A DNA stretch of 64,000 bases, taken from the IMG/VR virus record IMGVR_UViG_3300035152_000026, positions 22,002-86,001 of that record; one strand, written 5' to 3'. A program made the translations under genes and the position numbers. The stretch is from a virus. Of the stretch, positions 1 to 57,560 are shown in pieces; position 1 is the stretch's first letter, and each line of letters starts with the position of its first letter. A model generated the notes under the pieces. That model saw only the letters and a program-made list of their open reading frames with translations, searched no databases and was not told the DNA's origin.

Positions 1-351
1 ATCGTAACTCGTTTGTCGAAAGCTGATGCACAGAAGAAGGTCACCGAACTGGGCGCAGACGATATCCTCGAAGTCGTCAACGCTGAGAACCCGCGCATCT
101 CGCTCGTTCGATGCAAGATCCCCGTCGTTCGGCGTGGCCCCGAGCTAGACCGCGGCTACCAAGCACTGCAAGCTGTTGCAGACGCCGACTCTGCCATCGG
201 ACGTGAACGCCAGAAGGCCCGTGAGGCCAAGGAGAAGGCTGCCGAGAAAGCCGTAGCGGCTCTACCCAAGAAGCCGGCTGTCCCTGCTACCGCCCCCGCT
301 GAGCCAGCGCCTGCGCCGGCCAAACCAGGCCCGAACAAGCCCAAACCGTAG
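1..351 (+). CDS. hypothetical protein, probably 5'-partial; Pro/Ala-rich C-terminal tail
   Basis: ORF 13..351 (TTG) stays open back to window position 1 in the same frame. Protein-like composition. Convergent with the next gene. Confidence 0.4.
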   Translation: MVTRLSKADAQKKVTELGADDILEVVNAENPRISLVRCKIPVVRRGPELDRGYQALQAVADADSAIGRERQKAREAKEKAAEKAVAALPKKPAVPATAPAEPAPAPAKPGPNKPKP

Positions 352-353
352 GG

Positions 354-2013
354 CTAATCCAGGTAGCCGTACTCGTGCGCCATGTCGCGAAGCGCCTCGT
401 AGCAGTCAGGCGCCTCGCGCTTGATGTCTTCCCACGTCAGCTTTCCATGTGGACGCGTGTTGCTGGTGAATGGGCCCTCGGGGAATGGCTTCTGTGGCAG
501 TTTCAAGTAGTCGAGAAGCTCTGGCCACGCCGAGCCTTCACCGCCATGCAGATCCTCGACGCGATAACGGAACGACGTAAACGCCTCGATATAGCGGTTC
601 CATCGCAGAACGAAGAGGGCATAAGCCGCGACTGAGTCGAGGTTCGCGGGCCACTCCGGGTCCTGATTGGCGATGTGATCGTAGCGTTCGCGGTGTGAAC
701 GCAGCGCGTTGTGCGCTAACTCCCAACCAGAGTGCGCGCCGAAGTCGATCGTGGGCATCGATGCGATGACTTTCAGTGGGTCACGTACCTGGTGCGCGAT
801 GGCAGTCCACTTGTCGAACGTGTAGCTGTATTTTCCCGTGTAGCGGCCTACTGCTTCGTTCCAGTAGGTACGGTCGATGCCTGGGTTGATGTGGCACCAG
901 CTGACAGTCACGATGCTGCCCATCTGCTCGTGCTGCACGTCCGTGTCGTGCTCGGCAAACGCAGCGCGAAACACCGTGGTGGCATATACCGTGCCGCTTC
1001 GTGGCGTGCCAGTGATGAGCACGGGCGGCGGCCGATTCATGGCTGCGACAAGCCCGTCGATGTGCTTCTGCGCGTCCTCGATTTTCGGAGCTGGTCGCCC
1101 AATCGCAGGCTGTTCTGTGACTACCTCACGGCTTGGCTCAGACGCTTCGATCTTCGGCTCGTCGGGGGGCGCGGTTGGAGCATCCACGTCGGGTTTTGCA
1201 GGTCCTGCTGCTGCTGCTGGCTTCGTCAGATCGACGAGATCTTGCTTGCGTGCCACAGTCAAGATTCGGTCGATGCCCTCGACGGTTGGGAAGAGGGGCC
1301 TCGGCGGTTTGTCCGCGGGATACCATTCGCAGGTGTCGAAAACGCCGTCAGGGTCGATGATCTTCGGGGTGCCCTCGAATGCATCCGCGACGAGTACACA
1401 ACTCAGGAAGTGCTGCGCAGCCTGTTCGAGGAACGTGTTGACGTACGGCACGAGTCCGGGAATCTTTGGGTCGGTAATACGCAACCCGACTGTATCCTGG
1501 ACAGCACGGCGCGCAGCCCAGGTGACGGATTCGCCCACTTCAAGTCGTGCTTCTGGGAAAGTCCAGAGTTTGCTCTTTTTCAACCGGCAAAACAGTAGAT
1601 CATTCTCGCGGCGAACCATCACGACCACGCTGGCTTGCACGTCGAGGCGATCCGTCGAGTTGACGTTGCGGATCGTGTAGCCCTCCTCGCAGCCTTCGGG
1701 ACCACTTTCAGCCCATTGCCGTGCGTGGCCTTCCACAGCAAACGTCGCCAGAGGCTCCTGGCTGTCCGGCGGCGCAAAGACAGCAAACACGCGACGGTCA
1801 CCGCTGAGCAGCTCCGGCGGGTTCGGACCTACAGTGATGTACACCGGTCGCTTGTCTTGATCCTCCTCGACGATCAACACTGCTTCTGGGTGCTGATCTC
1901 GGATGTTTCCGAACGCCTCGACAAAGGCGCGAACTCCGAAGGATGAGAACTTTTTGGCCAGTTTGGCTTCTGGGCCCTCAACAACGTCTCCGATACGAAT
2001 GATGGTCTTCACG
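354..2013 (-). CDS. Nudix-like hydrolase / sulfotransferase fusion protein
   Basis: ORF 354..2612(-). The N-terminal ~200 aa are Arg-rich low-complexity, so the start was moved to GTG at 2013 (VKTIIRIGDV...). Nudix-box-like GESVTWAARRAVQDTVG. Pro-rich linker. C-terminal ITGTPRSGTVY PAPS-binding (5'-PSB) sulfotransferase motif. Confidence 0.55.
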
Positions 2014-2052
2014 GTGTAAGTTGTACTACATGACTCTGACGTACATGAAATT

Positions 2053-2068
2053 GATCGCGGACGCGATC
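2053..2068. promoter_or_regulatory. GATCGCG-GA-CGCGATC palindromic operator-like site (copy 1)
   Basis: Perfect 7-2-7 inverted repeat in the divergent intergenic region between 2013(-) and 2133(+). Confidence 0.5.
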
Positions 2069-2132
2069 TCGTGCTACGTTGAATCAGGCACGGCGGTCGC
2101 CGGCCATCTGAAGACAAACAAAGGGGTAATGT

Positions 2133-2690
2133 ATGGCCCTCGAACAGAATTCTGTTGTCCTTTTCGACTCCTCTGACGTAGAGACCGGTACAGCCGCCAA
2201 TCCACTCCGTGTTGACCCAACCGGTACAACCCCCCAACCGGTTACTGGTACCGTAACCGCGAATCAGGGCACACCGGCGGTTGTCGGCAACGCGTGGCCC
2301 ATCAAGGTCACCGACGGTGTGAGCACCGCAGGTATCGCGACGACTGCGCCGACAGCGAACGCTCCGGGCCTCGTAGTCCGTGTTGCGGGCGCTATCAGCG
2401 TCACTTTCTCGCAGCCAGCTACGGGCACGGTCACGTCGGTCAGCGTGACCAGCACGACCACTGCGACGACGCTTCTGGCAGCCAACGCAAACCGGCTCGG
2501 GGCAAGCTTCTGGAACGACGGCGCCCAGGTCGTTTACGTTCGGCTGAGTGCTGGCGCAACAACGGCGCTGTTCACGGTGCGCATCTCGAACAAGGGCTTC
2601 TACGAGCTTCAATTCCCCGCTTATACCGGCATCGTGACTGGAATCGTCGCGGCCGGCGTGGCCGTCGTGTTGGTCACTGAGTTGACCTAA
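2133..2690 (+). CDS. Thr/Ala-rich putative virion structural protein
   Basis: SD aaagggg 7 nt upstream of ATG. Thr/Gly/Ala-rich composition typical of fibre or decoration proteins. First gene of a plus-strand operon. Confidence 0.55.
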   Translation: MALEQNSVVLFDSSDVETGTAANPLRVDPTGTTPQPVTGTVTANQGTPAVVGNAWPIKVTDGVSTAGIATTAPTANAPGLVVRVAGAISVTFSQPATGTVTSVSVTSTTTATTLLAANANRLGASFWNDGAQVVYVRLSAGATTALFTVRISNKGFYELQFPAYTGIVTGIVAAGVAVVLVTELT

Positions 2691-2732
2691 ATTTCTTGAT
2701 CGTCACACCGATCAGGTAGACTACTCGCCGTC

Positions 2733-3299
2733 ATGGTTCCGCTTGAAGACGGCAACACGGGCATCGAAGACGACGCATCCGGTGCTCGTGTTCTCAGTGG
2801 CCGTTTACAAATCATTCCCACCGACGCGAGCGGAAACCCGGTCGATGTCATCTACGATAGTACCAGCGGCGGCTACATGCTCCGCATGGCAGGCCAAGTA
2901 GTCGTTTCGCCATCGCCCATCCCTGCTGGTGGAACTCCTATAACTGTTGCAGCGGATAACCCTCTCGAAATCACTGGTGGAACGAGCCCGCACGACACAG
3001 CGTACACCATCACGAACGGCAAAACGTTCTATCTTCAGCAATTCGTTGCTGGCTGTCAGGGCGATCCAACTGCGTCAGGTTCCGTGATCGAGTTGTATTT
3101 TGATGACGGTACAGAACATCTCGTAGATCGCATCTACATCGACGGGTTCACAAACTATGTAAGCTACGCCGATGTGTACAAGACCCGAGACGGAACAACG
3201 ATGGTAGGGAACGGCTCCAACCAAGTCATCGTCAGACGAAGACGCTTGTCCAACTCCGGGCAAGAAGTAGACGGCGTAGTTAGAGGGTACGAGGCGTAG
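2733..3299 (+). CDS. putative structural protein
   Basis: 188-aa ORF in the structural-like operon. Gly/Thr-rich. Confidence 0.5.
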   Translation: MVPLEDGNTGIEDDASGARVLSGRLQIIPTDASGNPVDVIYDSTSGGYMLRMAGQVVVSPSPIPAGGTPITVAADNPLEITGGTSPHDTAYTITNGKTFYLQQFVAGCQGDPTASGSVIELYFDDGTEHLVDRIYIDGFTNYVSYADVYKTRDGTTMVGNGSNQVIVRRRRLSNSGQEVDGVVRGYEA

Positions 3300-3301
3300 A
3301 C

Positions 3302-4147
3302 ATGGCAGGCGATACGATATTCAACGTCGAAGGGCTGGTTTCGACCAAATCCACACTTGATACAGGGCTTGTCACCCCAAGCGTGGGGCAGTCACTGAAG
3401 ATCGACGTGCAGGGATTCCTCTACGACATAGGTGGCCTTCGCGGAGCCTATGCGGGGGCTGTTACGCAAAGCGTTTCGGATGACGACACAAGCTACGTGT
3501 ACCTCGACAAATCGGCGTCACTGGTCATCAACACAACAGGCTTCCCCACTGGAGAGACCTACATTCAGCTCGCTCGTGTCGTTGCTGCTAATGGGGACAT
3601 TGCAGCCATCTACAACGAGAAAACCCTACTCGCTGCATCGAGTTCTTCGATCGGAACATGCCACATCAGCTATCCCGTTGACGGTGACGTGCGCGGTGGT
3701 GTGACATCGGCTAGCTCAAACAACGACTTTGCCGCAATTCGATTCGATTCTGGTGGCGACGGATGGAACCGAATCAACCGTAAACCCCCACAGAACTACA
3801 CGAGCGGCGATCTCAAGTTCCGCTTCTACTACTCCTGGCCCAGCGCCATCGGCAACAACAAAGAAGCGCGTTGGCGACTCGACTACGCGTTTCGATCTGC
3901 TTCTGACGCGCTGGGAACGTGGGACGGCTACGATCAACAAGATTTTGATGTTTCTGATGAAGCAGCTGATACGCTACTCTACAAAGAGCTTACGCTGCCA
4001 TCAGGAGACTTCGACATAACCGCTGATCTCATGCTGCTCAAGATCAGTCACCTGGGAACCGAGGACGACTGCCCAGAAAACTGCTACGTGCATCAGCAAG
4101 AGCTGATCTATACGGGCAGATTACTTGCCGGACAGGCAGGACAATGA
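3302..4147 (+). CDS. putative tail fibre / receptor-binding associated protein
   Basis: ATG 3 nt after the upstream stop. 281 aa. Its stop overlaps the next start (ATGA). Confidence 0.55.
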   Translation: MAGDTIFNVEGLVSTKSTLDTGLVTPSVGQSLKIDVQGFLYDIGGLRGAYAGAVTQSVSDDDTSYVYLDKSASLVINTTGFPTGETYIQLARVVAANGDIAAIYNEKTLLAASSSSIGTCHISYPVDGDVRGGVTSASSNNDFAAIRFDSGGDGWNRINRKPPQNYTSGDLKFRFYYSWPSAIGNNKEARWRLDYAFRSASDALGTWDGYDQQDFDVSDEAADTLLYKELTLPSGDFDITADLMLLKISHLGTEDDCPENCYVHQQELIYTGRLLAGQAGQ

Positions 4148-5055
4148 CGAAGATGAATAGAAAGGTGAAACCCCCCATGGCAATCAAGATTGATGTGCTC
4201 AAGGCCAGCTCGACGCAGGACTACTTGCTTGGCTATGCCGAGCGAATCTCGATGGACCCCGAGCTAGGTGACGACAACAACGTCATCTTGAAGCAGCAAG
4301 TGCGCGTCATTCACAAGAACGGCAAGTACGCCATCTACACGGTCTACGCCTGGTACCAGGACGGCACCGACGATAACGACATCAGGATGGCCCTCGCCGG
4401 CCGACAACGGCTCGACACTGACGACTCATTCAAAGGCACGATGGAAGTCGAAGCGCTCGCGCAGGACAAAGACGCGAGCTGGCTCCAGAGCAACAACGAG
4501 TACGGTGAGTTTCTCGACGAGACCGACGACCAGCAGACTGCCTTCGTTGTGTGTGCCCCACACGGTGGCATGATCGAGAACTACACTGACGAGCAGGCCG
4601 AGCGTGTCCAGGCCAACCTGGCTGGCCAATCCAAGAGCAGCTCGTGCTGGACCGCGAAGGGCTGGAATTCGGACGTCGGAGCCTATGACGCCTGGCATAT
4701 CACCTCGACGGAGATCAGTGAGGACTCGTTCCACAAGCTCGGGCAGCTTCTCAACCGTACGTTCACCCACGCGGTTGCCTTTCACGGCTACTCCGAATCC
4801 GACATCGCGGTCGGAGGTGGTGCGGCGCTCGCGCTCAAACAAGAAGTCGCTACTGCGATTCAGGCAGCGGTCGGCCAGGCATACAACGTCGTGGTCGTTA
4901 CTTCCGGCCCGTACGGTGGCACCGACCCAGACAACTTCATCAATCGGCTGTCCAACGGTAACGGCATCCAGATCGAGCAACCCTACGGAGCCCGCTCGAA
5001 CTACTGGCAAGCCATCGCTGATGCCGTCGCCAGCGTCTTCGCTGGAAAGCAGTAA
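4144..5055 (+). CDS. putative depolymerase; C-terminal poly-gamma-glutamate hydrolase (PghP)-like domain
   Basis: ATGA overlap with the upstream gene. C-terminal segment FVVCAPHGGMIENYTDEQAE...AVAFHGY resembles the zinc-binding PghP family, recalled from memory. Confidence 0.5.
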   Translation: MTKMNRKVKPPMAIKIDVLKASSTQDYLLGYAERISMDPELGDDNNVILKQQVRVIHKNGKYAIYTVYAWYQDGTDDNDIRMALAGRQRLDTDDSFKGTMEVEALAQDKDASWLQSNNEYGEFLDETDDQQTAFVVCAPHGGMIENYTDEQAERVQANLAGQSKSSSCWTAKGWNSDVGAYDAWHITSTEISEDSFHKLGQLLNRTFTHAVAFHGYSESDIAVGGGAALALKQEVATAIQAAVGQAYNVVVVTSGPYGGTDPDNFINRLSNGNGIQIEQPYGARSNYWQAIADAVASVFAGKQ

Positions 5056-5162
5056 TGGGTGAGGAGTACAAACGCCCATGGCCTTGGATCGTAGCCATAG
5101 GCTGCGTTGTTGCATTGCAGCTTGTGACGTTGGGCCTGGTCGTCTGGCTCCTAATCCGGTGA
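5055..5162 (+). CDS. small hydrophobic membrane peptide (35 aa)
   Basis: ATG overlaps the upstream TAA. Single predicted TM helix (WIVAIGCVVALQLVTLGLVVWLLI). Below the ORF-track cutoff. Confidence 0.25.
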   Translation: MGEEYKRPWPWIVAIGCVVALQLVTLGLVVWLLIR

Positions 5163-5212
5163 TCCCGGACGCGATATTGCCTTTCAACCCGGGGTCGGGA
5201 TAGACTGGGGCC

Positions 5213-5692
5213 ATGCACAAACGTGTGGCATGGCTCCTACCTGTCTTGCTACTTATAGCTGTCAGCAACTGCGGCCCGGATGCGAAGCAGAAAGCCCTTC
5301 GTACCACACTGACCGGGCTTAACGCTGCGCGTGACGGTTTCGTTGCTTGGGACTACGTGCATCAACAGGGCATTGTAGATAGCGCTGTCAGCCTCGAAGA
5401 CGGCAAGGCGAAACTCAAGGACTACCGCACGAAGCGCGAAAAGGTCGTCATCTCCTTCGAGCTGGCCTACCGCGCCCTGGCTGTTGCAGCCCTGGATATG
5501 ACCTCAGCGAACATCGGCGAGGCACTGCGTGCGGCTGGCGACCTCTTTGACCTGGTTCGGGCACTCATGGACAAGGACGCGCCTGAGTTGCCGTCAAATA
5601 CGACTGCGCCAGTAGAAGCACCCGCAGCTGCGGAAGAAGTGCCTCCTGCGCCTACCACAAGCGAGCCCGCAGCTACACCAGCGAGCCCTTAG
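5213..5692 (+). CDS. putative lipoprotein with Pro/Ala-rich C-terminus
   Basis: Signal peptide with LLLIAVSNC lipobox-like Cys. 159 aa. Confidence 0.5.
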   Translation: MHKRVAWLLPVLLLIAVSNCGPDAKQKALRTTLTGLNAARDGFVAWDYVHQQGIVDSAVSLEDGKAKLKDYRTKREKVVISFELAYRALAVAALDMTSANIGEALRAAGDLFDLVRALMDKDAPELPSNTTAPVEAPAAAEEVPPAPTTSEPAATPASP

Positions 5693-5693
5693 C

Positions 5694-6239
5694 ATGGAAG
5701 CCCGCGACAACTACTACTGCGTCGTCCATCCGATGCAAGGTGCGGATGGGCAAGTCATCCAGCCGGCGTGCACACCAAACACTGATGAGGCTGCGGAACG
5801 GTTTCGCGTATTCAAGGCTTCGATCAACAGAGCTGCGACCGTAATGGGTCTCAGCATGCAAATCGATGCCCAAGACCCGACGTTGGGAATGCCGGCCTAC
5901 CACTTGATGATCCACATCGCGCGGCGGCTAGCGAACCTTTGTCAGAGGCAGCGTACCGAAGTGCCGGAAATGGCAGCGACGTTGGCAGTTACCGATCCCA
6001 GAGATTTCCTGATTGTCGCAACGGACGTAGTGCGGCTAGAAGCGCTCATGACAGAAATCGAGCAGGGCGTCTACGGTCGTTGGATTCCCGCCCCCGCACC
6101 TATTGTAGGGCGCATGCCTCCACGTAAGTTGTTGACCATCGCAAGTGCGGGGTTGCTGTTTTCAACGGCGCTCTTCTTCACCCCCAAGGAGTGGACACTC
6201 TATGGCATTCGACCTAACGAAGTTCGACCAAGCGAGTGA
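5694..6239 (+). CDS. hypothetical protein
   Basis: ATG 2 nt after the upstream stop. 181 aa. Confidence 0.45.
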   Translation: MEARDNYYCVVHPMQGADGQVIQPACTPNTDEAAERFRVFKASINRAATVMGLSMQIDAQDPTLGMPAYHLMIHIARRLANLCQRQRTEVPEMAATLAVTDPRDFLIVATDVVRLEALMTEIEQGVYGRWIPAPAPIVGRMPPRKLLTIASAGLLFSTALFFTPKEWTLYGIRPNEVRPSE

Positions 6240-6501
6240 CGCAGATCAGTTCATAGAGATTTCACTCGCTGGGCTTTCGGCCATCAGCCATTTGATTGGC
6301 GGTGAAGTTGCGGGGTCTGCGGCAGCAGCGCTCAAGGCTGTACAGTCGATCGTTCAGTCCATTCAGGACACCTACGATGGCAAGCTCACATTCGATCAGG
6401 TACGTACAGAGTTCGCGGAGCTACTAGCCAACCTCGAAACCAACGACGCTGCCGCAGACGAGGCACTGCGCCAAAGGTTCGACACAGACAAGGAGAACTA
6501 G
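6202..6501 (+). CDS. hypothetical protein
   Basis: Internal ATG of ORF 6145..6501, preceded by aaggag SD. 99 aa. Confidence 0.45.
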   Translation: MAFDLTKFDQASDADQFIEISLAGLSAISHLIGGEVAGSAAAALKAVQSIVQSIQDTYDGKLTFDQVRTEFAELLANLETNDAAADEALRQRFDTDKEN

Positions 6502-6504
6502 AAC

Positions 6505-6948
6505 ATGGCTATCAACTTTACCCTTGCCGAAGTCACGCCGCACCGTCTGCGGTACCTCTGCCTCGACGATGGGGATGCGACAGTCACCCCTTCGACCGGG
6601 CAGATCGGAAACACCGGGGCAGGCACGCCAGATCTGCGTGCTGACGCGGCCGCGATTCACGATTCGCCGATCCACAAGCTGGTGTCCACTGCGGTGACCA
6701 GTCAGGCGGACGCGCGCAAGCTGCTTGCGGGCGAGGGACTGACCACCGATGCGGACATCGATACGCCGCGCGCGCATCTGAAGCTCACGCCCAAGAACAC
6801 GCAGGCAACACAGATTCCGTGGGCGGTCGATGCCGATCTTGGCGTCGGTGGATCCGCTGGCTACGCCGTCATCAACGTCTATGGTTCGACGCTCGCGGGA
6901 GCACTCTGTTTCCTCGATGTCGAGTTCGAGCACACCATCACGAGGTAG
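6505..6948 (+). CDS. paralog family A member 1 (TLAExTPHRLRYLC ... YLDIEFEHTITR)
   Basis: SD caaggag. 147 aa. Shares N- and C-terminal motifs with three other ORFs in this window. Confidence 0.6.
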   Translation: MAINFTLAEVTPHRLRYLCLDDGDATVTPSTGQIGNTGAGTPDLRADAAAIHDSPIHKLVSTAVTSQADARKLLAGEGLTTDADIDTPRAHLKLTPKNTQATQIPWAVDADLGVGGSAGYAVINVYGSTLAGALCFLDVEFEHTITR

Positions 6949-6966
6949 TCCTCACAGGAGAAGAAC

Positions 6967-7377
6967 ATGGCCATCACTTTCACACTCGCTGAATCCACGC
7001 CGCATCGCCTTCGCTACCTCTGCACCAACGCGGGCGATACGCTTTTCCCATCCACTGGCACACTCGACAACGCGACGTTGCAGACCGACGCAATCGACGG
7101 CACGCCGATGGCGGACATCATGGCAACGGCGACAGCTGACCAAGCTGCGGCGCGTGAGCTACTGCTCGGGGAGGGCCTGACCACCCAGGCGGACATCAAC
7201 ACGCCGCGCTGTCACTGCAAGCTCACTCCACGCAACCTGGTCGCCGATCAGGAACCGTGGGCAGTGGATGCGGATGCGGCGGCGAACCATCCGGTGCTAG
7301 TCGTCTACGCCTGCGATGCCAGCGGTCCGACGTACGCGTACCTCGACATCGAATTCGAGCACACGATCACGCGGTAG
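6967..7377 (+). CDS. paralog family A member 2
   Basis: SD caggag. 136 aa. Tandem paralog of 6505..6948. Confidence 0.6.
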   Translation: MAITFTLAESTPHRLRYLCTNAGDTLFPSTGTLDNATLQTDAIDGTPMADIMATATADQAAARELLLGEGLTTQADINTPRCHCKLTPRNLVADQEPWAVDADAAANHPVLVVYACDASGPTYAYLDIEFEHTITR

Positions 7378-7962
7378 CTGCGTCCAGCCAGCGAAGCAGT
7401 GACTGGTACGGTGTCGAGCATGCCGTACCATCACATAGTGCGGGCGGCCATCTAACCACTCGATCAGCTTCCGTGGTCGCGCTCGGATGAACGCGCTGTC
7501 CGCGCCAATATCCCGGTTGGGGTACGCTCCGTAGCCGTGGAATCGCCGTGTAAATGCCAGCGTGCCGGGCGCGAGCCATCGATCGGTGGGCGTCTCCCAG
7601 AACGTGTCTGTAGCCTCTTCGTAGCTCCGAATCCCCCCAAACACGGACGCTTCTTTTCCGTCTCGGATAGCAGCTACCTGCACCGACACGCGAGCCGGCC
7701 CGTGCCAGTCATCGTCATCCCAGGTAACCAGGATGTCACCTTGCGCTAGCTGGACTAGCGCTTCGCGTTTCCAACCAAGAATCTTGCGCTCTTCCTGACG
7801 AACTAGCCGAATACGTGAGTCTTTTGGAACCGTAATGGCTGGATCGCCGTCGTCCAGGACAACGAGTTCACGCTCTGTGTAGTCCTGTGCGAGGAAGTCT
7901 ACGATAGCCTGCTGGGCGCGTTGTGGACGGTCAGCAGTCGGCATCAAACAGGACACGAGCAT
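7297..7962 (-). CDS. GT-A fold glycosyltransferase-like protein
   Basis: N-terminal SCLMPTADRP and a WDDDDWH acidic motif. Paralog of 15196..15990. The C-terminus overlaps the convergent gene by ~80 bp. Confidence 0.5.
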   Translation of the reverse strand: MLVSCLMPTADRPQRAQQAIVDFLAQDYTERELVVLDDGDPAITVPKDSRIRLVRQEERKILGWKREALVQLAQGDILVTWDDDDWHGPARVSVQVAAIRDGKEASVFGGIRSYEEATDTFWETPTDRWLAPGTLAFTRRFHGYGAYPNRDIGADSAFIRARPRKLIEWLDGRPHYVMVRHARHRTSHCFAGWTQLPRDRVLEFDVEVRVRRTAGIAGVDD

Positions 7963-7975
7963 GCTACCTATCGTA

Positions 7976-7991
7976 GATCGCGGACGCGATC
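7976..7991. promoter_or_regulatory. GATCGCG-GA-CGCGATC operator-like site (copy 2)
   Basis: Divergent region between the glycosyltransferase (7962, -) and the fibre gene (8029, +). Confidence 0.5.
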
Positions 7992-8028
7992 ATTGATAGG
8001 CTAATCAAAGTACGCGAATGGAGCATGC

Positions 8029-11000
8029 ATGGCCACGCAACTGAAGAACATCATCGCGTTTACGGCAGTCGGAGCCGGCGCACAGCAAACTGTCGCTCAT
8101 GGTCTCAACATTGACGGTCGAGGGGTCACCCCCGACAAGCTGGAGTTCGACAACGGCGACTTCAGTTTTATCGCAGCCGACGCGACGAATGTGACAGTGC
8201 AAAACGATGGCGCAGGCGTTGCGAACTGCAATGTCATGTGTGAGCACTGGCTTACGGTCGAACGCACGTTCGGACCTGTTAGCATCACGTCACTTACACC
8301 ACAACCGTTCATCGTTGCAGGGTCTGGCGGCGGCGGCAGCAACGTAGCTGACTGGCTCGGTACAACGGGTGCGGATGTCAACGTTGGCAACGCAGCACCG
8401 CCCGTCGCTGGCCAGGTGCTCAAGGCGACAAATCCAACAACCGCAACCTGGCAAGCCGATAGCGGTGTGTCGAACCCGCTCATCCTCCAGACCGGCAACG
8501 GCACGGTCACAGCGCCCAATGCTTACGCGTCAGGCGCAATCGGACATGGCATCGACGGCGACGTGGGCACTGCCGATGTCCAGGTTGATCCTACCGCAGC
8601 CGGGCTCGCGATTGGTTGGACGGACTCTTATACGGGCGGGACGGCGAGAGTCAAAGCTGGTGGTTTCGGTGGTGGTGGTGGTGGTGCATTCGCTCATGGA
8701 TTCGCGACGCTTGGCGGGGCGTTCACTGCACTGATTGAAGCCGGGCATTCCGGATCGACTGCCTTCGGTTACGCGGATGGCAGTGGCGCAAACGCGTCGA
8801 TTCGATCACGGGGGCGAGGTTCACAGGCTTTTGGTTGGGTGAGTGGAGGAACCGATGCTGCATACATCTACGCCGATGGCAGCGGATCATTCGCGGGCGG
8901 CTTTGCTTACGGCGCGTACGGTGCGCTGACACGCATTCGTGCGCAAGTCAGCGGATCGATGGCCTTCGGCAAAGTGTTCGGAGGTTCTGTTCGCACGAGT
9001 CTCAATGGCGCTCTCGCTGTGGGCTGCGGCAACAACCAGGGTGACGTACATGCGAGCGGTCTCGGTGCTGTTGCGCTCGGCTACGGCACTTACGGAGGTC
9101 TTGTCGAGGCATCTGCCAGCGGATCTGGGGCGGCTGGTCACGCATATGGCGCGACTGGTACTGTGCAGGCGTCTGGCGCAGGTGGTTGGGCATTCGGATA
9201 CGCCTATGAAGGCGGTGTCTATGCGCTGGGTAGCGGATCATTCGCAGGTGGCTACGCCAAAGGTGTGGGCAGTGCCGTTCTTGCTACTCTTCGCGGCTCG
9301 GCTGCGTTCGGCGGTGCGTACGGTGGAGGAACCGTTGAATCGATCGATGCCGGTACGCTGGCCTCTGGCTACGCCTACTCCGGCGGTCTGATTCAGGCGG
9401 ATGGGCGTGGATCCCAGGCAATGGGTCTGGCTCAGAACAACGGTGACATCCTCACGAACGCCTACGGCGCGATGGCACGTGGTTTCTGTGACGGCAACAA
9501 CTCACAGATCACGGCGGCGGATCGTGGTGCGTTCGCGTCGGGTACCGCGTTGACGGATGGAGATCTTCTGGTTTTCGGCTACGGCTCACACGGTGTCGGC
9601 GATGTTCGTGACGGAGCCAAGATCGGTACAGCCGCTGCTAGCCATGGCTGCTTCGCTGGTGGCTATGCGAGCGATGGAGCATCGCTCATCTACTCGCGAG
9701 AAGGTGGCTGTTTCGCCTTCGGTCGAGCGCAGTTCGAGGGCGACATCACTGCACGTGGTGTAGGTGGCTTCGCGCTTGGGGCTGCGAACGGTACTGCGAC
9801 TTACGGCCACGCCAAGATCTACACGAACGCAACAGGCGGTCTCGCGCAAGGCTACGTACGCGACACCCAGCCTCTAGGCGTGCAGTTTTCACAGATCCTT
9901 TGCTACGGCAAGGGAGCGTTCTCCGCTGGTTACGTTAACCAGCGTGGTACGATCTCAGCGAGTGGTGGTGGAGCGCATGCAGGTGGCTACGCGTCATCAG
10001 CTGCTATCTATGCAGGCGGTGAAGTACCTGCAAGCATCGAAGCCAGCGCACTTGGCGCGTTTGCGCATGGATTTTCCAAGCGTCCAGTGACTGCTGGTGT
10101 AACTTCTTACATGCGTGCGAGTGCAGCGGGAGCCTGGGCCGGTGGTTACGCGATAGGATATCTTTCCACGAGTGCTATTGAAGCTCAGAGTAAAGGGTCC
10201 CTTGCGCATGGTTACGCCCTCTCAGGTACTATCTACGCTAGCGCGCAAGGCGCTTTCGCGTCCGGGTTCAGCTCACTCAACGGAAGTATCGACGCAAGTG
10301 GTTATGGCGCGCTCGCCGGTGGGAGCGCGTTAGCAGCGGGGATCAACAACGCCAACATACAGGCGCAAGGCGTTGGCGCGTTTGCATTCGGCACTGCTGC
10401 TACTGGATACCCTACTGTCGGTTACGAGAGCCGCCTTCGTGCCTACGGAAACGGATCTTGGGCGGGTGGCGATGCGATTGCTACCACCTATGGAATAGCA
10501 ACCTCGCGAATTCAGGCGCTTGATCACGGTGCTCTCGCACATGGCTACAACGTAGATAGCTACATCGAGGCGCAGTCGAAAGGTTCACAAGCGTTCGGCT
10601 TCGCGGACAGTGCTGGCTACATCTATTCGTCAGCGTATGGTGCGTTTGCGTCTGGCCACGCAAAAGACTCTGCATACATTTATGCGTCTGGCAAGGGCGC
10701 ACGTGCTCACGGGTACGGAAAGGGCGGGCTTGCTACAGCACGGATTGGAGCGAGTGGGGGAGGTGCATTCGCGTTCGGATACGTGACTGCTCTCGAAAGC
10801 GCGGCAGGAATTTTTGCAACTAGTCGCGGCACATTCGCTGGCGGTAGCGTGCAAGGAACCTACAACATCACCGCATCCTCATCCGGGGCGTTCGCGTTTG
10901 GTCGGGCCGACACAGGCAACATTCAAGCAACGGCTTCTAACGCTGTGCAGTTCGGTGTCGGTGTCAACAGTGCCTCGAACACGATGCAGATTGGCAGTGC

Positions 11001-11127
11001 GGGTCTGCGTTTCTGGGGCGCTGGTTATCCGGTAGCACCACAAGATGGTGACATCTGGGTCAACAACAACTACGTGTATATCAGATCGAATGGCGTCAGC
11101 TGCAAGTGCGTGAACGCCGCTATGTAG
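8029..11127 (+). CDS. Gly-rich hyper-repetitive tail fibre-like protein (1032 aa)
   Basis: Dozens of degenerate ~20-aa repeats (SGSFAGGFAYGA, GAFAHGYA, and similar). Very long ORF with strong coding bias. Confidence 0.8.
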   Translation: MATQLKNIIAFTAVGAGAQQTVAHGLNIDGRGVTPDKLEFDNGDFSFIAADATNVTVQNDGAGVANCNVMCEHWLTVERTFGPVSITSLTPQPFIVAGSGGGGSNVADWLGTTGADVNVGNAAPPVAGQVLKATNPTTATWQADSGVSNPLILQTGNGTVTAPNAYASGAIGHGIDGDVGTADVQVDPTAAGLAIGWTDSYTGGTARVKAGGFGGGGGGAFAHGFATLGGAFTALIEAGHSGSTAFGYADGSGANASIRSRGRGSQAFGWVSGGTDAAYIYADGSGSFAGGFAYGAYGALTRIRAQVSGSMAFGKVFGGSVRTSLNGALAVGCGNNQGDVHASGLGAVALGYGTYGGLVEASASGSGAAGHAYGATGTVQASGAGGWAFGYAYEGGVYALGSGSFAGGYAKGVGSAVLATLRGSAAFGGAYGGGTVESIDAGTLASGYAYSGGLIQADGRGSQAMGLAQNNGDILTNAYGAMARGFCDGNNSQITAADRGAFASGTALTDGDLLVFGYGSHGVGDVRDGAKIGTAAASHGCFAGGYASDGASLIYSREGGCFAFGRAQFEGDITARGVGGFALGAANGTATYGHAKIYTNATGGLAQGYVRDTQPLGVQFSQILCYGKGAFSAGYVNQRGTISASGGGAHAGGYASSAAIYAGGEVPASIEASALGAFAHGFSKRPVTAGVTSYMRASAAGAWAGGYAIGYLSTSAIEAQSKGSLAHGYALSGTIYASAQGAFASGFSSLNGSIDASGYGALAGGSALAAGINNANIQAQGVGAFAFGTAATGYPTVGYESRLRAYGNGSWAGGDAIATTYGIATSRIQALDHGALAHGYNVDSYIEAQSKGSQAFGFADSAGYIYSSAYGAFASGHAKDSAYIYASGKGARAHGYGKGGLATARIGASGGGAFAFGYVTALESAAGIFATSRGTFAGGSVQGTYNITASSSGAFAFGRADTGNIQATASNAVQFGVGVNSASNTMQIGSAGLRFWGAGYPVAPQDGDIWVNNNYVYIRSNGVSCKCVNAAM

Positions 11128-11141
11128 AAAGGTGAGACGAG

Positions 11142-11372
11142 ATGCCCAAGCAGAAATGGGAGTTGCGCGGAAACAAGCTGGCGGTAGTGACGCCGGCTGT
11201 GAAAGAGCAAGTTGAAGAGGTCGGAGTCGAGAGGCTCGACCGTGAAATCCAGCGTGTTCAACGACGCAAAGGAGTCACCGAGCAACGGCTTGCTGCTGTA
11301 CAGGCAGAGCTGGACAAGTGGACCACGAAAGAAGCTGAGCTTCTCGCCCTGCGTGCCCAACTCGGGGATTGA
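11142..11372 (+). CDS. small coiled-coil protein
   Basis: SD aaaggtgag. 76 aa. Charged heptad-like sequence. Confidence 0.5.
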   Translation: MPKQKWELRGNKLAVVTPAVKEQVEEVGVERLDREIQRVQRRKGVTEQRLAAVQAELDKWTTKEAELLALRAQLGD

Positions 11373-11439
11373 TGTCACAGTGACGTGCTAGAGTTCCGGC
11401 GCGAACGTGAAACACAAACGTCGGTCCAGGAAGCGCGTC

Positions 11440-12270
11440 ATGAAATTCAACGTCATCGCCGGGATGCCCCGCGCGGGGTCTACCCTCCTCTGCAATATTC
11501 TCAACCAGAACCCACGCTTCTACGCGTCGAGTACGAGCTGCATTGCGCAGACCGTACGGTCGATCAGCGGGTTCTGGTCGCGGTCTCCTGAAGTCAAATC
11601 CGAGCTGATCAACGACAAGGAGAAAACAGAAGCACGCATGATCGGAGCTGTACGTGCGTTGGTCGAGGGTTGGTACAAAGACCTCGACGCCGAGGTTGTG
11701 TTCGACAAGGGACGTTTCTGGAACCTGGGCGCACCACTCTTACGTCAGCTCTTCCCCGACGCGCACATGTTCGTCTGTGTTCGCGATTTGCGAATGATCT
11801 TCGCCAGCGTCGAGAAGCAGCACGAGAAGAACCCAATGATCGACGAGGCAGATAACGCCGCTGAGCTGACGAAGTACAACCGTGCGGATCGCATGTTCGG
11901 ACCGCAAGGGATACTAGGTCAGCAAATCATGGGCATCGAGGACCTGATGCGGCGTAATCTGCACGATGCGGACGGCAAGCCCTACGTGCACACGATCCAG
12001 TACGAGACGTTTGCGCAGAATCCCCAACTTGTCCTCGACCGAATCTACACAGTGCTGGGTGAAAAACCGTTCGAGCACGATTTCGAGAACGTGAAGCCTA
12101 GTGCCGGGTCCACTGACGTTGATGGCCTCTACAACTACAAATATCCCCACGAGGGCATCGGTAAGGTCGAGGCTCGGCCTGAAGACTGGCGTGAATACGT
12201 GCCGCCAGACATCGCGAGCCTAATCATGCAGAAATTCGCGGCCTACAACCGCGCTTTCGGTTACCAGTAG
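11440..12270 (+). CDS. sulfotransferase family protein
   Basis: Start moved to ATG 11440 (SD aggaag). GMPRAGSTLL 5'-PSB motif of PAPS-dependent sulfotransferases. Confidence 0.7.
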   Translation: MKFNVIAGMPRAGSTLLCNILNQNPRFYASSTSCIAQTVRSISGFWSRSPEVKSELINDKEKTEARMIGAVRALVEGWYKDLDAEVVFDKGRFWNLGAPLLRQLFPDAHMFVCVRDLRMIFASVEKQHEKNPMIDEADNAAELTKYNRADRMFGPQGILGQQIMGIEDLMRRNLHDADGKPYVHTIQYETFAQNPQLVLDRIYTVLGEKPFEHDFENVKPSAGSTDVDGLYNYKYPHEGIGKVEARPEDWREYVPPDIASLIMQKFAAYNRAFGYQ

Positions 12271-12292
12271 CATCTAGTCGCGGTAATCATTT

Positions 12293-12308
12293 GATCGCGG
12301 ACGCGATC
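12293..12308. promoter_or_regulatory. GATCGCG-GA-CGCGATC operator-like site (copy 3)
   Basis: Intergenic, upstream of paralog gene 12385. Confidence 0.5.
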
Positions 12309-12384
12309 ATTGATTCTGGACAATGCCTCGTATATCCTGGCAACAACGGGGGCGGAGCCTCCGACTGACACCAAGGAGAGAAGC

Positions 12385-12855: not shown

Positions 12856-12861
12856 GAGTCG

Positions 12862-13602: not shown

Positions 13603-13614
13603 AGGAGCACCCCG

Positions 13615-14112: not shown

Positions 14113-14162
14113 TGTGTTGTGGTCCGCGTTTTGCGGGGTAGTGCCAAAAGGAGAACGAGTAC

Positions 14163-14258
14163 ATGGCTCGATACTGCATAAAGTGCCATAGGCGTGCGCC
14201 AGAAGTGAAGGAGTGCCCTAGCGGCTGGCGTGAAGTCCGGTCCCATGGGCGCCTGTAA
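14163..14258 (+). CDS. 31-aa zinc-ribbon micro-protein (CxxC...CxxxW)
   Basis: Strong SD aaaaggag. MARYCIKCHRRAPEVKECPSGW. Confidence 0.25.
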   Translation: MARYCIKCHRRAPEVKECPSGWREVRSHGRL

Positions 14259-15199: not shown

Positions 15200-15990
15200 C
15201 CCACATCACCACGAAGCAAGTAGGCGGCTTCGTACTTCGCGAGGTCGTCACCCATCAGCTCACTGAGATCTCCGTCCCACTGTCGCCACACAGGATCACG
15301 TTCAGCGTCCCGACTACAGATTCGATTCGAGACGTTTTGTCCGTGGGCAAAGGCCACGTAGAGATACGGCGGCTGACGAAGCCGCGCAAGCCGCGCACCG
15401 TATTGCGTAAGAAGCTTGTAGACAAATAGGTCGTCGCTGCCGCGAGCTTTCGCGGGGAAGCCGATCATCAGGCCGAGCTTTCGTCGAAAGCACATCGTAC
15501 CCGATATCAAGTAGGAGGGCGGATCGGTGACACAGCGAAGCTGGTATTGGCCCGTGAAGCGTTCCTTGTCGCTCAGGATGTGCAACAGGAAGGTCCAATC
15601 ACCGACAACGTCAACGTCGTCCGTAATCAACGCGGCGGTCGCTTCGAGGCGCGTCGGTGCATGCCAGTCGTCGTCAGCCCAGAGTGCTACCCACTCGGAG
15701 CGTGCCGCTTCAATGCACGCGTTGTATTTCTCGCCGAGCGTTCGAGTGCCTTCCAAACAGAGGTATCGGACCCGGCCGTTGGCATCGAAAGGGATCAGGT
15801 TGGAGACGTGTTCTTGCTCGCCGTCAGGACGCGTTGGATCTCGTGGGATCAGTAGAGGACCGTCTACCACCACTACCAGCTCAGAGTCAGCGTAGGTCTG
15901 GCGTTGCCAGCACTCGATGGCCAGCGGCAGGCACCACCAGCGTGACGCGGTGGTAGGACAGACGCACGATATTTGGGGTCGGCGCCTCAA
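15196..15990 (-). CDS. GT-A fold glycosyltransferase-like protein
   Basis: ISCVCPTTASR N-terminus and WADDDWH motif. Paralog of 7297..7962. Confidence 0.55.
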   Translation of the reverse strand: MRRRPQISCVCPTTASRWWCLPLAIECWQRQTYADSELVVVVDGPLLIPRDPTRPDGEQEHVSNLIPFDANGRVRYLCLEGTRTLGEKYNACIEAARSEWVALWADDDWHAPTRLEATAALITDDVDVVGDWTFLLHILSDKERFTGQYQLRCVTDPPSYLISGTMCFRRKLGLMIGFPAKARGSDDLFVYKLLTQYGARLARLRQPPYLYVAFAHGQNVSNRICSRDAERDPVWRQWDGDLSELMGDDLAKYEAAYLLRGDVG

Positions 15991-16238
15991 CGGCCAAAGT
16001 CCGGTGGGGGCTGTCTGGGCAGCAGTGCTAACGCCGCCCGGAAATGCCCGCGGAGGTGCTCACACGCCGCCGTGTAGGCCTCTCGCCAGGCCCGGTCCCC
16101 GACGTCGGCGACCTGGTAATAGGCCCTCAGCGCGTCCCTGACGGCCGCTGACGCGCCGATCCCGCGGAGCCGGGCATCCTCGCGGACCAGCGCGGCCAGC
16201 TCTTCGTCGAGTACGACATGGACCTTCACTGCGGACAT
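15987..16238 (-). CDS. ribbon-helix-helix (CopG-like) DNA-binding protein
   Basis: MSAVKVHVVLDEELAALVREDARLRG N-terminal beta-strand plus helix. ATGA overlap with the downstream glycosyltransferase. Paralog of 44905..45162. Confidence 0.5.
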   Translation of the reverse strand: MSAVKVHVVLDEELAALVREDARLRGIGASAAVRDALRAYYQVADVGDRAWREAYTAACEHLRGHFRAALALLPRQPPPDFGR

Positions 16239-16324
16239 TCGCGCTATCATACAGTAATTACAGGCACTTTGCAGCATGGCGTTGTGTTGAATATCCAGGC
16301 CTCGTAGAGTGTCTTACAACGTGA

Positions 16325-16337: not shown

Positions 16338-16352
16338 GACGAGGAGTGGCAG

Positions 16353-37573: not shown

Positions 37574-37995
37574 TCTGTGTCGTCATAATCGCAGCCGCGA
37601 TTTTCTGGTACGCACTCATTCTGTGGTGTTGGTCGTATTGGGTCGGCGCGGGTCAGCGTGATGGTCGCGGGCTTACACCGACGAGTTGGTGGGCTGTGTT
37701 CACGATGCCCTGGTGGACCGGACGTCTGTGGCTCGAAGTCCAGTGGACGTACTTCGTGGAGCGTCAAAGGGCACGACGGCACCTACGCAAGTTGGAGGCA
37801 ATGGAGCGTGACGCGCCGCCCGGCGTACCACCTGAGTTGATGCAGCGGCTACAAAGTGAAATTGATCGGCTACGCTGCCAATTCGATCCCGACTACCAGC
37901 GTGCTCAGTTGGCTACCAGACAATCTGAGCACCGTCAGGCCAATGTAATAGGATTTCGACATGGACATTCCCGCGATCGACATCGCGAAGATTGA
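37567..37995 (+). CDS. membrane protein
   Basis: GTG start. Trp-rich TM segment VVVCVVIIAAAIFWYALILWCWSYW. Confidence 0.35.
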   Translation: MVVCVVIIAAAIFWYALILWCWSYWVGAGQRDGRGLTPTSWWAVFTMPWWTGRLWLEVQWTYFVERQRARRHLRKLEAMERDAPPGVPPELMQRLQSEIDRLRCQFDPDYQRAQLATRQSEHRQANVIGFRHGHSRDRHRED

Positions 37996-43830: not shown

Positions 43831-44914
43831 CGGTTGTCGGGCAAGCTCTCAGATCATGTCCGAGGGAACCGACCTGATCCCGCGCCCACCCTGGCAAATT
43901 AGGCCCTCAGACGCTGCTCTGAGCCCCGATCTGCAAGACCGCCTAGAGGAGGCACTCCTGGCGTTCCGGCGCACCCTGGACTCCCCAGAGAGCGTACGCG
44001 GCTACCGTGACGACTGGCGCCGCTGGGTGGCTTGGCTCTCCGCCGAAGGGGTCCATCCACTGCACGCGCTGCCCCTGCACGTTCTGCGCTATCTCGTGAG
44101 CATGCAGGACGCTGGCAGGGCGAAGACGACGCGCTCACGCGCACTGGCCGTGATCCGTTCGACCTACGCCGCGCTGGTAGTTGCGTTCTCGGAGGTGCCT
44201 GGGGTGCTAGACGCAAACCCCGCGCGCGAGGTCCGAAACATCAAAGTGGATCACGAGCCGAAGACGCCCTGGCTCGCAGAAGACGAAATGCGCCGTCTCC
44301 TAATACGGCCGCCGTCAACCGCGCCGTGGGTAGAACGTCGCGATTGGGTTATCTGCGCCACGCTAGCAGGTACGGGTTGGCGTCGAGCGGAGATCGCACG
44401 CCTTCGTCGTGATGCGCTCCTCGACACCCCTGGTGGCTTCGCTGCGCAAGTGCACGCGAAAGGTGGCAAGGATGCCATCGTGCCACTTCCAGTTTGGTTG
44501 TCGCACGAGCTGGCGGAATGGTGCCAAGCCAATCGTATCGACGCAGGGCCAATATTCCCGCGACGCGAAGGCGCCGACGTGGCCGTTGGCCCCACGACAG
44601 TCAGGAACGCCGTGAAGCGATCAGCGGAACGCGCAGGGCTCGACCTGACACGCGCAACACCTCATGCGATTCGGCGTTCGTTCGCGACGATTACAGGTCA
44701 GCGTGGCGTCTCAATCGAAGATCGTCAGGCGGCGATGCTACATGCCTCAAAGGCGACAACAGAGCGCTACGACAAAGCGAGCAAACTGCCAGCACAAGCA
44801 CCCGGCGAAGTGCTTCGCGATCTTGTCGAGCCATCGAATGGCGAAGCAAACGCCGCCGCATCAAATGACACGCAGCCAAAAACTTGGCCGCCGCGTCGAG
44901 CTGATTACGAGTGA
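43811..44914 (+). CDS. int: tyrosine recombinase / phage integrase
   Basis: C-terminal catalytic motifs HAIRRSF and TTERYD (R...HxxR...Y). Preceded by an AT-rich region. Confidence 0.85.
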   Translation: MPVDDNTGCRASSQIMSEGTDLIPRPPWQIRPSDAALSPDLQDRLEEALLAFRRTLDSPESVRGYRDDWRRWVAWLSAEGVHPLHALPLHVLRYLVSMQDAGRAKTTRSRALAVIRSTYAALVVAFSEVPGVLDANPAREVRNIKVDHEPKTPWLAEDEMRRLLIRPPSTAPWVERRDWVICATLAGTGWRRAEIARLRRDALLDTPGGFAAQVHAKGGKDAIVPLPVWLSHELAEWCQANRIDAGPIFPRREGADVAVGPTTVRNAVKRSAERAGLDLTRATPHAIRRSFATITGQRGVSIEDRQAAMLHASKATTERYDKASKLPAQAPGEVLRDLVEPSNGEANAAASNDTQPKTWPPRRADYE

Positions 44915-45162
44915 AATGTATCGTCAGGATAGACGGGTGAGACTTGCTCAACGGCGTCCAGCGCAGCGCGGCGAACCGCTGCCCACGCCGCGGTGTAGCC
45001 CTCTCGCCATCCTGCGTCCTCGCCTGACGCGACGATGCCGAGACCGTGGCGTAGTAGATCGCGGAGCGCAGCAGACAGGGATATGCCGCGGGTCTGCGCA
45101 TGCTGTACCAGGTACGTGTGTAGCTCGTCGTCAAGAAGCACGTTGATGTGGTGTGACGCCAT
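44905..45162 (-). CDS. ribbon-helix-helix (CopG-like) DNA-binding protein
   Basis: INVLLDDELHTYLVQHAQTRGISLSAALRDLL. Convergent with int. Paralog of 15987..16238 (shared WREGYTAA motif). Confidence 0.55.
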   Translation of the reverse strand: MASHHINVLLDDELHTYLVQHAQTRGISLSAALRDLLRHGLGIVASGEDAGWREGYTAAWAAVRRAALDAVEQVSPVYPDDTFHS

Positions 45163-45200
45163 GAAAATATGCTAGCAATGTTCAAGGGTTATGTAAAATT

Positions 45201-45216
45201 GATCGCGGATGCGATT
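45201..45216. promoter_or_regulatory. GATCGCG-GA-TGCGATT degenerate operator-like site (copy 4)
   Basis: Divergent region between the RHH gene (45162, -) and 45304 (+). Two mismatches. Confidence 0.4.
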
Positions 45217-57473: not shown

Positions 57474-57560
57474 CAGTCTAACTACTCAAAACAGCACGGG
57501 TTTATTTTTGATCGCAGCTGCGAATATCTGGCACGTCCACACGTCTGACTTTATGAGGAC

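Follow-up and report, generated by a model that had tools for sequence, protein, structure and literature searches.

A 16-bp interrupted palindrome recurs in promoter regions of the 64,000-nucleotide stretch of viral DNA analysed here (IMG/VR virus record IMGVR_UViG_3300035152_000026, positions 22,002 to 86,001; hereafter referred to as the window), and is on balance probably the operator of a small ribbon-helix-helix (RHH) repressor of the type encoded by the gene designated RHH2, which would regulate its own gene together with promoters of virion and accessory genes. The sites are real, non-random and non-coding, are conserved within a clade of related phages, and co-occur at a fixed distance with RHH genes whose predicted DNA-reading strand follows the pattern H-x-N-V. 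From the sequence we infer the positions of the promoters, the identity of the binding protein and the sign of the regulation.

The Putative Operator and Its Copies in the Window

The element, GATCGCGGACGCGATC, is a 16-nt inverted repeat of the form GATCGC-N4-GCGATC, with 7-nt arms perfectly inverted around a GA centre that is not self-complementary, making it an interrupted palindrome that can be oriented. As described in a first-pass annotation of this DNA, three exact copies are accompanied by a degenerate fourth, and three of these four sites (copies 1, 2 and 4) do lie between divergent genes, the remaining copy being situated between co-directional ones. The exact copies all have one common orientation, and the fourth has a single stem mismatch.

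2053..2068, no strand assigned: operator copy 1, exact GATCGCGGACGCGATC, between the NUDIX gene 354-2012 (-) and the 185-aa gene 2133-2690 (+)
7976..7991, no strand assigned: operator copy 2, exact GATCGCGGACGCGATC, between the glycosyltransferase gene GT2 7297-7962 (-) and the 1032-aa gene 8029-11127 (+)
12293..12308, no strand assigned: operator copy 3, exact GATCGCGGACGCGATC, between the sulfotransferase gene 11407-12270 (+) and gene 12385-12855 (+)
45201..45216, no strand assigned: operator copy 4, near copy GATCGCGGATGCGATT, between RHH2 44905-45162 (-) and gene 45304-45555 (+)

The number of copies is far above chance. Matches to GATCGCGGACGCGATC with at most three mismatches amount to 18 over both strands of the window versus 1.85 in shuffled sequences, while Markov simulation predicts 0.015 occurrences of GATCGC-N4-GCGATC and 0.18 of ATCGC-N4-GCGAT where three and six, respectively, are observed. 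All four main sites fall outside coding sequence, in a window of which approximately 13.6% is non-coding by our own gene list. A longer duplicated region, which the first-pass annotation had named as a possible source of the count, does not account for it because no two copies share more than 22 nt (GATCGCGGACGCGATCATTGAT, common to 7976 and 12293) and the flanks are otherwise unrelated. The extended context proposed at the same time, TTGATCGCGGACGCGATCATTGAT, stands complete only at 12291-12314, since the copy at 7976 has TAGATC on its left and that at 2053 a different right flank; the left flank AAATTGATCGCGGA is identical at the copies at 45201 and 2053. Copy 3 starts 22 nt past the stop at 12270 and 76 nt ahead of the ATG at 12385, the gene that follows it (12385-12855, 156 aa) being in agreement with the Joint Genome Institute (JGI) gene call.

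Further members of the family are found elsewhere in the window, the one at 37587 having its outer G..C pair changed to A..T on both arms (AATCGC..GCGATT).

2698..2713, no strand assigned: variant GATCGTCACACCGATC, non-coding, 3 nt upstream of aggTAGACT, ahead of gene 2733
5161..5176, no strand assigned: degenerate variant GATCCCGGACGCGATA, non-coding, upstream of gene 5213, membership uncertain
37587..37602, no strand assigned: symmetric variant AATCGCAGCCGCGATT, non-coding, 14 nt past the stop at 37573
57510..57525, no strand assigned: variant GATCGCAGCTGCGAAT with two mismatches, non-coding, upstream of gene 57593, membership uncertain
55143, within an open reading frame: weaker member AATCGCAGACGCGATT

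Conservation among Related Phage Loci

The 185-aa protein encoded beside copy 1 has more than 100 metagenomic homologs, and the divergent layout of NUDIX and 185-aa genes is retained in the genomic contexts that were fetched (related metagenomic phage loci are referred to by L numbers). When inverted repeats with 6-bp arms were counted in an unbiased census, GATCGC spaced by 4 nt came out as the top or sole recurrent repeat in the window, L134, L136, L137 and L138, and the symmetric variant GATCCC..GGGATC, equally spaced, was found twice in L129; no recurrent inverted repeat was found by this census in L125, L127 and L128. Sites in the relatives are nearly all intergenic. Their GATCGC half-sites are invariant around 4-nt centres as different as GGAC, GGCC, TGCT, TCCA, GGGA, TCCT, GCAA, ATAC and TCAC, and symmetric changes of both arms occur in L129 and at window position 37587.

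The element furthermore recurs beside orthologs of the same genes, namely the 185-aa gene, the fibre-like gene and a gene for a holin-like membrane protein. In L124, whose 185-aa protein shares 81% amino acid identity with that of the window, GATCGCGGCCACGATC occupies the position of copy 1. In L134, L136 and L138, genes whose products are homologous to the N-terminus of the 1032-aa protein have a palindrome 15-16 nt upstream of their starts, and the small holin-like gene, with two predicted transmembrane segments, has the element upstream at L124 position 56 and a degenerate copy at approximately position 385 of L119, a locus of the same phage lying just left of the window. The string GATCG-N6-CGATC-aggTAGACT follows the 185-aa gene at window position 2698, at L124 position 4800 (GATCGTCACTGCGATC) and at L125 position 10569 (GATCGTGCACGCGATC). 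Conservation in related phages, the check that the first-pass annotation had called for, thus gave a promoter-proximal palindrome recurring in related metagenomic loci, and supports on comparative grounds the view that the motif behaves as a conserved promoter-proximal DNA operator.

Searches of a broader kind yielded little. Megablast of 44 kb of the window (1-20000 and 40000-64000) against 50,697 phage records returned zero matches, and a scan of IMG/VR for the exact motif returned 117 loci with chance-like single occurrences (two in one locus), none of which encodes a window protein. Protein-seeded IMG/VR scans using the 185-aa protein and the RHH alignment found nothing, the scan of genome contigs gave as its sole match one 4.3-kb contig of a Panacagrimonas metagenome-assembled genome, and a literature search on the half-site strings retrieved primer-type matches only.

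Placement Relative to Predicted Promoters

Alignment of the intergenic regions suggests that the rightward promoter of the 185-aa gene combines a -35-like hexamer with an extended -10 that lies about 18 nt further downstream and follows the pattern TGnTAnnnT (cgTGcTACGTT, gTGaTAGGCT, TGtTAGTCT). An extended -10 of this type is kept in 11 loci: the window, L124, L125, L127, L128, L130, L131, L133, L138, L142 and L143.

2075..2080, + strand: putative -10 hexamer TACGTT with upstream TGc, promoter of gene 2133, read by eye
7997..8002, + strand: putative -10 hexamer TAGGCT with upstream TGa, promoter of gene 8029; TGaTAGGCT also occurs in the L125 and L128 promoters
45169..45197, - strand: predicted RHH2 promoter, TTTACA, 17 nt, TGcTAGCAT, 6 nt, ATG; leaderless

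Copy 1 ends 6 nt upstream of the rightward extended -10 cgTGcTACGTT and, on the minus strand, lies 3 nt upstream of the -35-like TTCATG of a predicted leaderless NUDIX promoter. Copy 2 ends 5 nt upstream of the putative rightward tTGaTAGGCT and abuts a leftward TACGAT that would be followed, after 7 nt, by ATG. Copy 4 is centred at -46.5 from the RHH2 start and 3 nt upstream of the predicted -35, TTTACA, a placement that fits autoregulation. The rightward promoter of the 185-aa gene has its -35/spacer part taken up by the palindrome in both the window and L124; the same promoter is found without the palindrome, its extended -10 retained, in L125, L127 and L128, and the element would therefore be a regulatory overlay and not a part of the core promoter. 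Its distance from the -10 is not fixed either, as it ends 3, 5, 6 or 10 nt upstream or, in the subclade L134-L141, starts 7-8 nt downstream, which fits a steric repressor better than a strictly positioned activator.

Other features of the promoters deserve mention. An 11-nt block, GTTGTACTACA, at 2020-2030 beside the NUDIX start is near-invariant in L124, L125, L127, L129, L130, L138, L142 and L143. Its minus strand reads TACAAC followed after 7 nt by the start, the putative -10 of a leaderless NUDIX mRNA, and its plus strand reads TTGTAC, which may be the -35 of a rightward promoter situated further upstream; the TGgTAAAAT of this promoter is well kept in L125 and L129, appears as TAAATT without the TG in L127 and has decayed to TGAAAT in the window. 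Leaderless starts seem to be numerous, with a TAnnnT -10 (often preceded directly by TGn or agg) 6-10 nt from the start and without a Shine-Dalgarno sequence, examples being 2717-2735, 5203-5215, 7960-7975 (-), 45160-45174 (-), 16236-16250 (-) and L119 at approximately 400-423; other genes have long leaders with GGAG-type Shine-Dalgarno sequences. An upstream region of about 50 nt, actgtccaccgaagtgatcgaacggCCCCGAGGGG.aaaaaggatcaacgATGaaa, exists in two near-identical copies at 47060-47125 and 47337-47402, each before a small neighbouring gene.

The Candidate Binding Protein

Two RHH paralogs are encoded in the window.

44905..45162, - strand: RHH2, the candidate operator-binding protein, 85 aa, beta-strand SHHINVLLD; adjoins and is convergent with the integrase gene 43811-44914
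15987..16238, - strand: RHH1, the paralog, beta-strand AVKVHVVLD; co-oriented with the GT2 gene 15196-15990; Pfam RHH_1 match of 26.4 bits against a cut-off of 20.5

RHH2 has weak Pfam matches to FitA-like_RHH and RHH_1, both below cut-off, and is 45% identical to P0112, an RHH1-type homolog from L182 with a precomputed Pfam RHH_1 (PF01402) match; the family profile matches the RHH structures of VapB26, AvtR, NikR and CopG. A low-confidence AlphaFold2 model of RHH2 (predicted local distance difference test score, pLDDT, 63) leaves residues 1-9 unstructured and places helices at 11-25, 29-40 and 50-73, the last being an extra C-terminal helix predicted at a pLDDT of about 70. The features expected of the RHH class are present: the fold, subsites about one helical turn apart (6-bp half-sites with centres separated by 10 bp) and a candidate operator in the predicted promoter of the protein's own gene. 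Pfam and PHROGs matched nothing for most window genes, and no further DNA-binding candidate emerged from them. Database relatives of the two RHH proteins are few (2 and 4 clusters).

The three RHH1-type homologs with genomic context (L182, L183 and L184) are RHH-GT2 cassettes like that of RHH1 in the window, with the RHH strand GRH(L/R)NVILD. Palindromes are found upstream of the RHH gene in all of them, namely GATCGTGCCCGCGATC and GATCGTGGCTGCGATC in L182, GATCGCGGCTGCGATC in L183, and GATCGATACCACGATC and GATCGCAGCCGCGATC in L184, the tandem operators of L182 and L184 starting 23 bp apart. Measured from the first base of the start codon, the proximal palindrome is centred at -47.5 in L182, -50.5 in L183 and -46.5 in L184, compared with -46.5 for RHH2, and all four promoters can be read as palindrome, 3 nt, TTxxxx, 17-18 nt, TAnnnT, 6-9 nt and start. 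The putative NUDIX promoters of the window and L124 show the same layout, with the operator abutting the -35 and a leaderless start. At the orthologous site, the AGCC centre of L184 is the reverse complement of the GGCT found in L182 and L183, an inversion that argues for symmetric recognition of double-stranded DNA.

When the proteins are aligned, the predicted DNA-reading strand is SHHINVLLD in RHH2, GRH(L/R)NVILD in the cassettes and AVKVHVVLD in RHH1. The H-x-N-V strand goes with an upstream palindrome in four RHH genes, and RHH1, with K-x-H-V, lacks the GATCGC palindrome in its promoter. This joint change of strand sequence and upstream palindrome is the best available, though indirect, support for the suggestion that RHH proteins of the H-x-N-V type read GATCGC. 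Upstream of RHH1 there is instead a different palindrome, GTAATTAC (ACAGTAATTACAGG), at 16254-16261 (context 16239-16275), which occurs once in the window and lies directly upstream of a putative TATGAT -10 that is 7 nt from the RHH1 start; it is probably the operator of RHH1 itself.

The first-pass annotation linked the element to a second family, CCCCGAGGGG, through a common GA centre, and proposed two paralogous regulators for the two families. The link is not supported, as GA is specific to this lineage and the 4-nt centre varies freely among the relatives. The idea of two regulators survives in part, insofar as RHH1 and RHH2 probably differ in DNA specificity; an operator role of CCCCGAGGGG for the second paralog is likewise unsupported. 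CCCCGAGGGG has 13 exact copies on the + strand of the window (at 16327, 16959, 19317, 20240, 45280, 47085, 47362, 49285, 51557, 55377, 55441, 57563 and 58296) versus approximately 3.6 expected at up to one mismatch; 11 of the 13 lie 4-20 nt upstream of a start codon on the sense strand, and the string contains the Shine-Dalgarno-like GAGGGG. With CCCCGAGGGG also kept in related RHH-GT2 contigs (L182 at approximately 660 and L183 at approximately 785), it looks like a 5' untranslated region or translation-initiation element rather than the operator of a second RHH protein.

Proposed Mode of Action and Its Alternatives

RHH2 would recognise two inverted GATCGC half-sites with centres 10 bp apart, the 4-bp centre probably being uncontacted, such that one RHH dimer on each half-site would give a tetramer along a single helix face. 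RHH2 bound at 45201 may regulate its own leaderless promoter, the proximal half-site being centred near -41.5, and the operator would also overlap the start region of a divergent rightward promoter; the sign of autoregulation could be positive or negative. At 2053 and 7976, the bound protein is proposed to occlude the -35/spacer of the rightward promoters and so shut them, the operator at 7976 additionally abutting TACGAT, the putative -10 of GT2 on the leftward side. Further rightward genes would have RHH2 ahead of them at 12293, 2698 and 5161. An extended version, in which RHH2 is bifunctional and activates the leaderless leftward promoters (its own and that of NUDIX) from about -41.5 while occluding the opposing early and virion promoters, is distinctly unlikely in our estimation.

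Several observations weigh against the main reading, that of an operator bound by RHH2. The closest homolog of RHH2, P0110 (72% identity, strand SNHVNVLLD; L180/L181), has just a half-site upstream, and this exception qualifies the autoregulation put forward in the first-pass annotation, which is otherwise consistent with the copy upstream of RHH2 and with the palindromes of the same geometry at three other H-x-N-V RHH genes. An hmmsearch with the RHH profile over the six-frame open reading frames of all related loci found no further RHH genes, the palindrome-bearing relatives being covered to 10 kb on either side, and of the four main copies in the window, the one adjoining RHH2 is the weakest. 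Every -10 and -35 was assigned by eye, a strict sigma-70 scan having recovered none of them. Half-site conservation across very divergent phages is unusual for immunity operators, and in the subclade L134-L141 the element coincides with the point where the transcript is predicted to begin, immediately 5' of the Shine-Dalgarno sequence.

Some of these points would be accommodated if the element were a DNA operator bound by another protein, either a phage regulator, for which the 83-aa protein encoded at 45304-45555 with its faint winged-helix-like Pfam match (E = 0.008) would be a candidate, or a conserved host factor, in which case the association with RHH genes would be incidental. Invariant GATCGC half-sites across phages whose common proteins share 35-65% identity would suit a host factor, RHH homologs are very rare for a motif so widespread in the clade, and P0110 lacks the full palindrome. 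Such a reading is nonetheless unlikely, since it leaves aside the fact that four RHH genes from two paralog groups have the palindrome in a common fixed geometry and that the paralog with the changed strand has lost the site. No host regulator is known to have this consensus, the nearest known one being ClgR, with TCGC-N5-GCGA, in which the spacing differs.

The position of the element in the L134-L141 subclade raises the further question of whether it acts as RNA, forming a stem of 6-7 bp with a 4-nt loop at the 5' end or between the cistrons of late transcripts and serving to stabilise the mRNA or as a target of an RNA-binding protein or nuclease. In L134-L137, L139 and L141, it starts 7-9 nt past a TAGACT -10 and leaves 8-17 nt to the start codon, such that a hairpin there would be 5'-terminal and adjoin the Shine-Dalgarno sequence; in L134, L136 and L138 the gaps that it occupies are short and separate co-directional genes; predicted energies range from -6.5 to -13 kcal/mol, several variants are G-U compatible, and each exact copy in the window shares its orientation with the genes downstream. 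A hairpin is quite improbable all the same, given that the stem is conserved in sequence and does not covary, that at the orthologous site the loop of L184 has the opposite orientation to that of L182/L183, and that neither the sites upstream of the RHH promoters in L182-L184 nor the window sites before a conserved extended -10 would be transcribed from those promoters. Folding z-scores are also modest (-1.3 to -3.5), and Rfam 15 gave no match at gathering score in the whole window. It is highly improbable that the element is a bidirectional intrinsic terminator or an insulator between transcription units, even though a terminator scan flagged 12292-12309 (+) and 2068-2053 (-) and the site at 12293 follows closely on a stop codon, at 22 nt. 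The tails TTGATTCTGG and AATTTCAT are not U-rich and no U-tract is present, terminator-like matches in the region are at background (15 versus 12.9 in shuffles), two sites stand between divergent gene starts where there is nothing to terminate, and the sites of relatives run straight into Shine-Dalgarno sequences. Slighter still is the likelihood of a methylation-sensitive element read by Dam/SeqA-like or other methylation-dependent factors, to which the two GATC sequences, 12 bp apart in each full site within a promoter region, might point; the overall frequency of GATC in the window is normal (415 observed versus 443 expected), conservation reaches past GATC to GATCGC, the AATCGC..GCGATT variant loses both GATC sequences symmetrically, and family scans of the window proteins identified no methyltransferase.

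Three more candidates were considered and rejected. A MerR-type spacer operator does not agree with predicted spacers of 17-18 bp (not 19-20), a distance to the -10 that varies from 3 to 10 nt and the absence of a MerR-family match from the window; a fixed-position site of a late activator such as Mu C, P2 Ogr or T4 MotA does not agree with the varying distance to the -10; and the cyanobacterial HIP1 sequence, GCGATCGC, has zero occurrences in the window.

Likeness to Known Systems

An RHH2 operator of the kind proposed here would most readily call to mind the Mnt and Arc proteins of the P22 immI region. There, too, two small RHH paralogs with apparently distinct operator specificities are found in one phage, a short symmetric operator with half-sites approximately one helical turn apart suits a dimer of dimers, and the operator is placed between divergent promoters such that a single bound protein can close one promoter while acting on its own as well; the tetramerisation helix of Mnt may have its counterpart in the extra C-terminal helix predicted for RHH2. 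Arc and Mnt differ in controlling the antirepressor locus only, whereas at least 4-8 sites precede virion-type and accessory genes here. The operator sequences are unrelated, and no sequence relation between the proteins is detectable beyond the RHH fold.

RHH proteins of archaeal viruses (SvtR of SIRV1, AvtR of AFV6 and F55 of SSV1) likewise regulate their own genes and structural promoters from several genomic sites. SvtR represses the gene for a large terminal-fibre protein. These proteins act, however, on archaeal TATA/BRE promoters through unrelated operators, and the similarity to AvtR (PDB 4hv0) is marginal (E = 0.011). The stoperators of mycobacteriophage L5, bound by gp71, are comparable in that many sites are spread over the early and late genome in short intergenic gaps, including co-directional ones. 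They are, on the other hand, asymmetric 13-bp sites bound by a helix-turn-helix (HTH) protein whose effect on elongation depends on orientation, unlike the symmetric sites described here with the inverted centre of L184. With cI of phage lambda at OR, the system would share a divergent region beside integrase and immunity genes, a leaderless regulator mRNA, and a site near the -35 of the regulator (proximal half-site at about -41.5) that overlaps an opposing promoter; cI differs in its HTH fold, its three tandem operators and the lack of binding before late structural genes. Lastly, CopG, VapB, FitA, ParG and omega are RHH autoregulators that belong to the same Pfam and PDB relatives and act on their own expression via short promoter repeats. 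Plasmid and toxin-antitoxin RHH genes are unlike those described here, which adjoin no toxin or partition partner and have as neighbours a glycosyltransferase (RHH1 type) or an integrase (RHH2).

Neighbouring Genes and Other Observations

In the 185-aa protein, a C-terminal beta-sandwich is modelled with confidence, for which a structure search matches uncharacterised tailed-phage proteins only. This protein is a paralog of the 188-aa product of 2733-3299 and of a 130-aa protein upstream of NUDIX (L119 1992-2384), all three having a common C-terminal beta-sandwich that ends in ...YTG..TG.....TELT. The 1032-aa protein contains many degenerate Gly-rich repeats, and in relatives only its first 95 or so residues are kept, as one would expect of a host-recognition fibre anchored through a conserved N-terminus. 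The names "structural operon" and "tail fibre" given in the first-pass annotation are in this sense plausible but unproven, Pfam and PHROGs being blank for the genes concerned. A gene of about 140 aa is tandemly duplicated (6505-6948 and 6967-7377), with 75-86% nucleotide identity at both ends.

In the vicinity of RHH2, downstream of the switch region, a 388-aa protein encoded at 45513-46679 has very weak metallopeptidase matches (DUF6782, SprT-like) and recalls the ImmA/IrrE-type anti-repressor proteases that adjoin repressor genes. Approximately 170 nt upstream of the gene for P0110, L180 contains a perfect 9-1-9 palindrome, ACCAGATCATTGATCTGGT (at about 2925-2945), whose core GATCATTGAT is the same string as the right flank of the window sites at 7976 and 12293. 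Elsewhere in the window, a 541-aa protein (62185-63810) with a Cas12f1-like TNB domain in Pfam and weak PHROG transposase matches represents a TnpB/IS200-605-type element in the phage region, and 23868-24857 encodes a pentapeptide-repeat protein (Pfam E = 3e-29) among + strand genes that are otherwise unannotated.

Significance

An RHH repressor and its operator make up a known and ordinary kind of switch, and no general concept is changed by finding one in a poorly known phage group. If RHH2 were bifunctional, lysogeny would directly control the genes for structure, lysis and surface modification through a single RHH protein. The proteins of the group would also offer a small natural series of RHH specificities, in which H-x-N-V may be paired with GATCGC and K-x-H-V with GTAATTAC, with the GATCCC variant of L129 as a further site. 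Given that most window proteins have no Pfam or PHROG match and that there are almost no annotated genes in this phage group, the operator, its candidate regulator and the accompanying promoter grammar (TGnTAnnnT and leaderless starts) may provide a first handle on the group's transcription.

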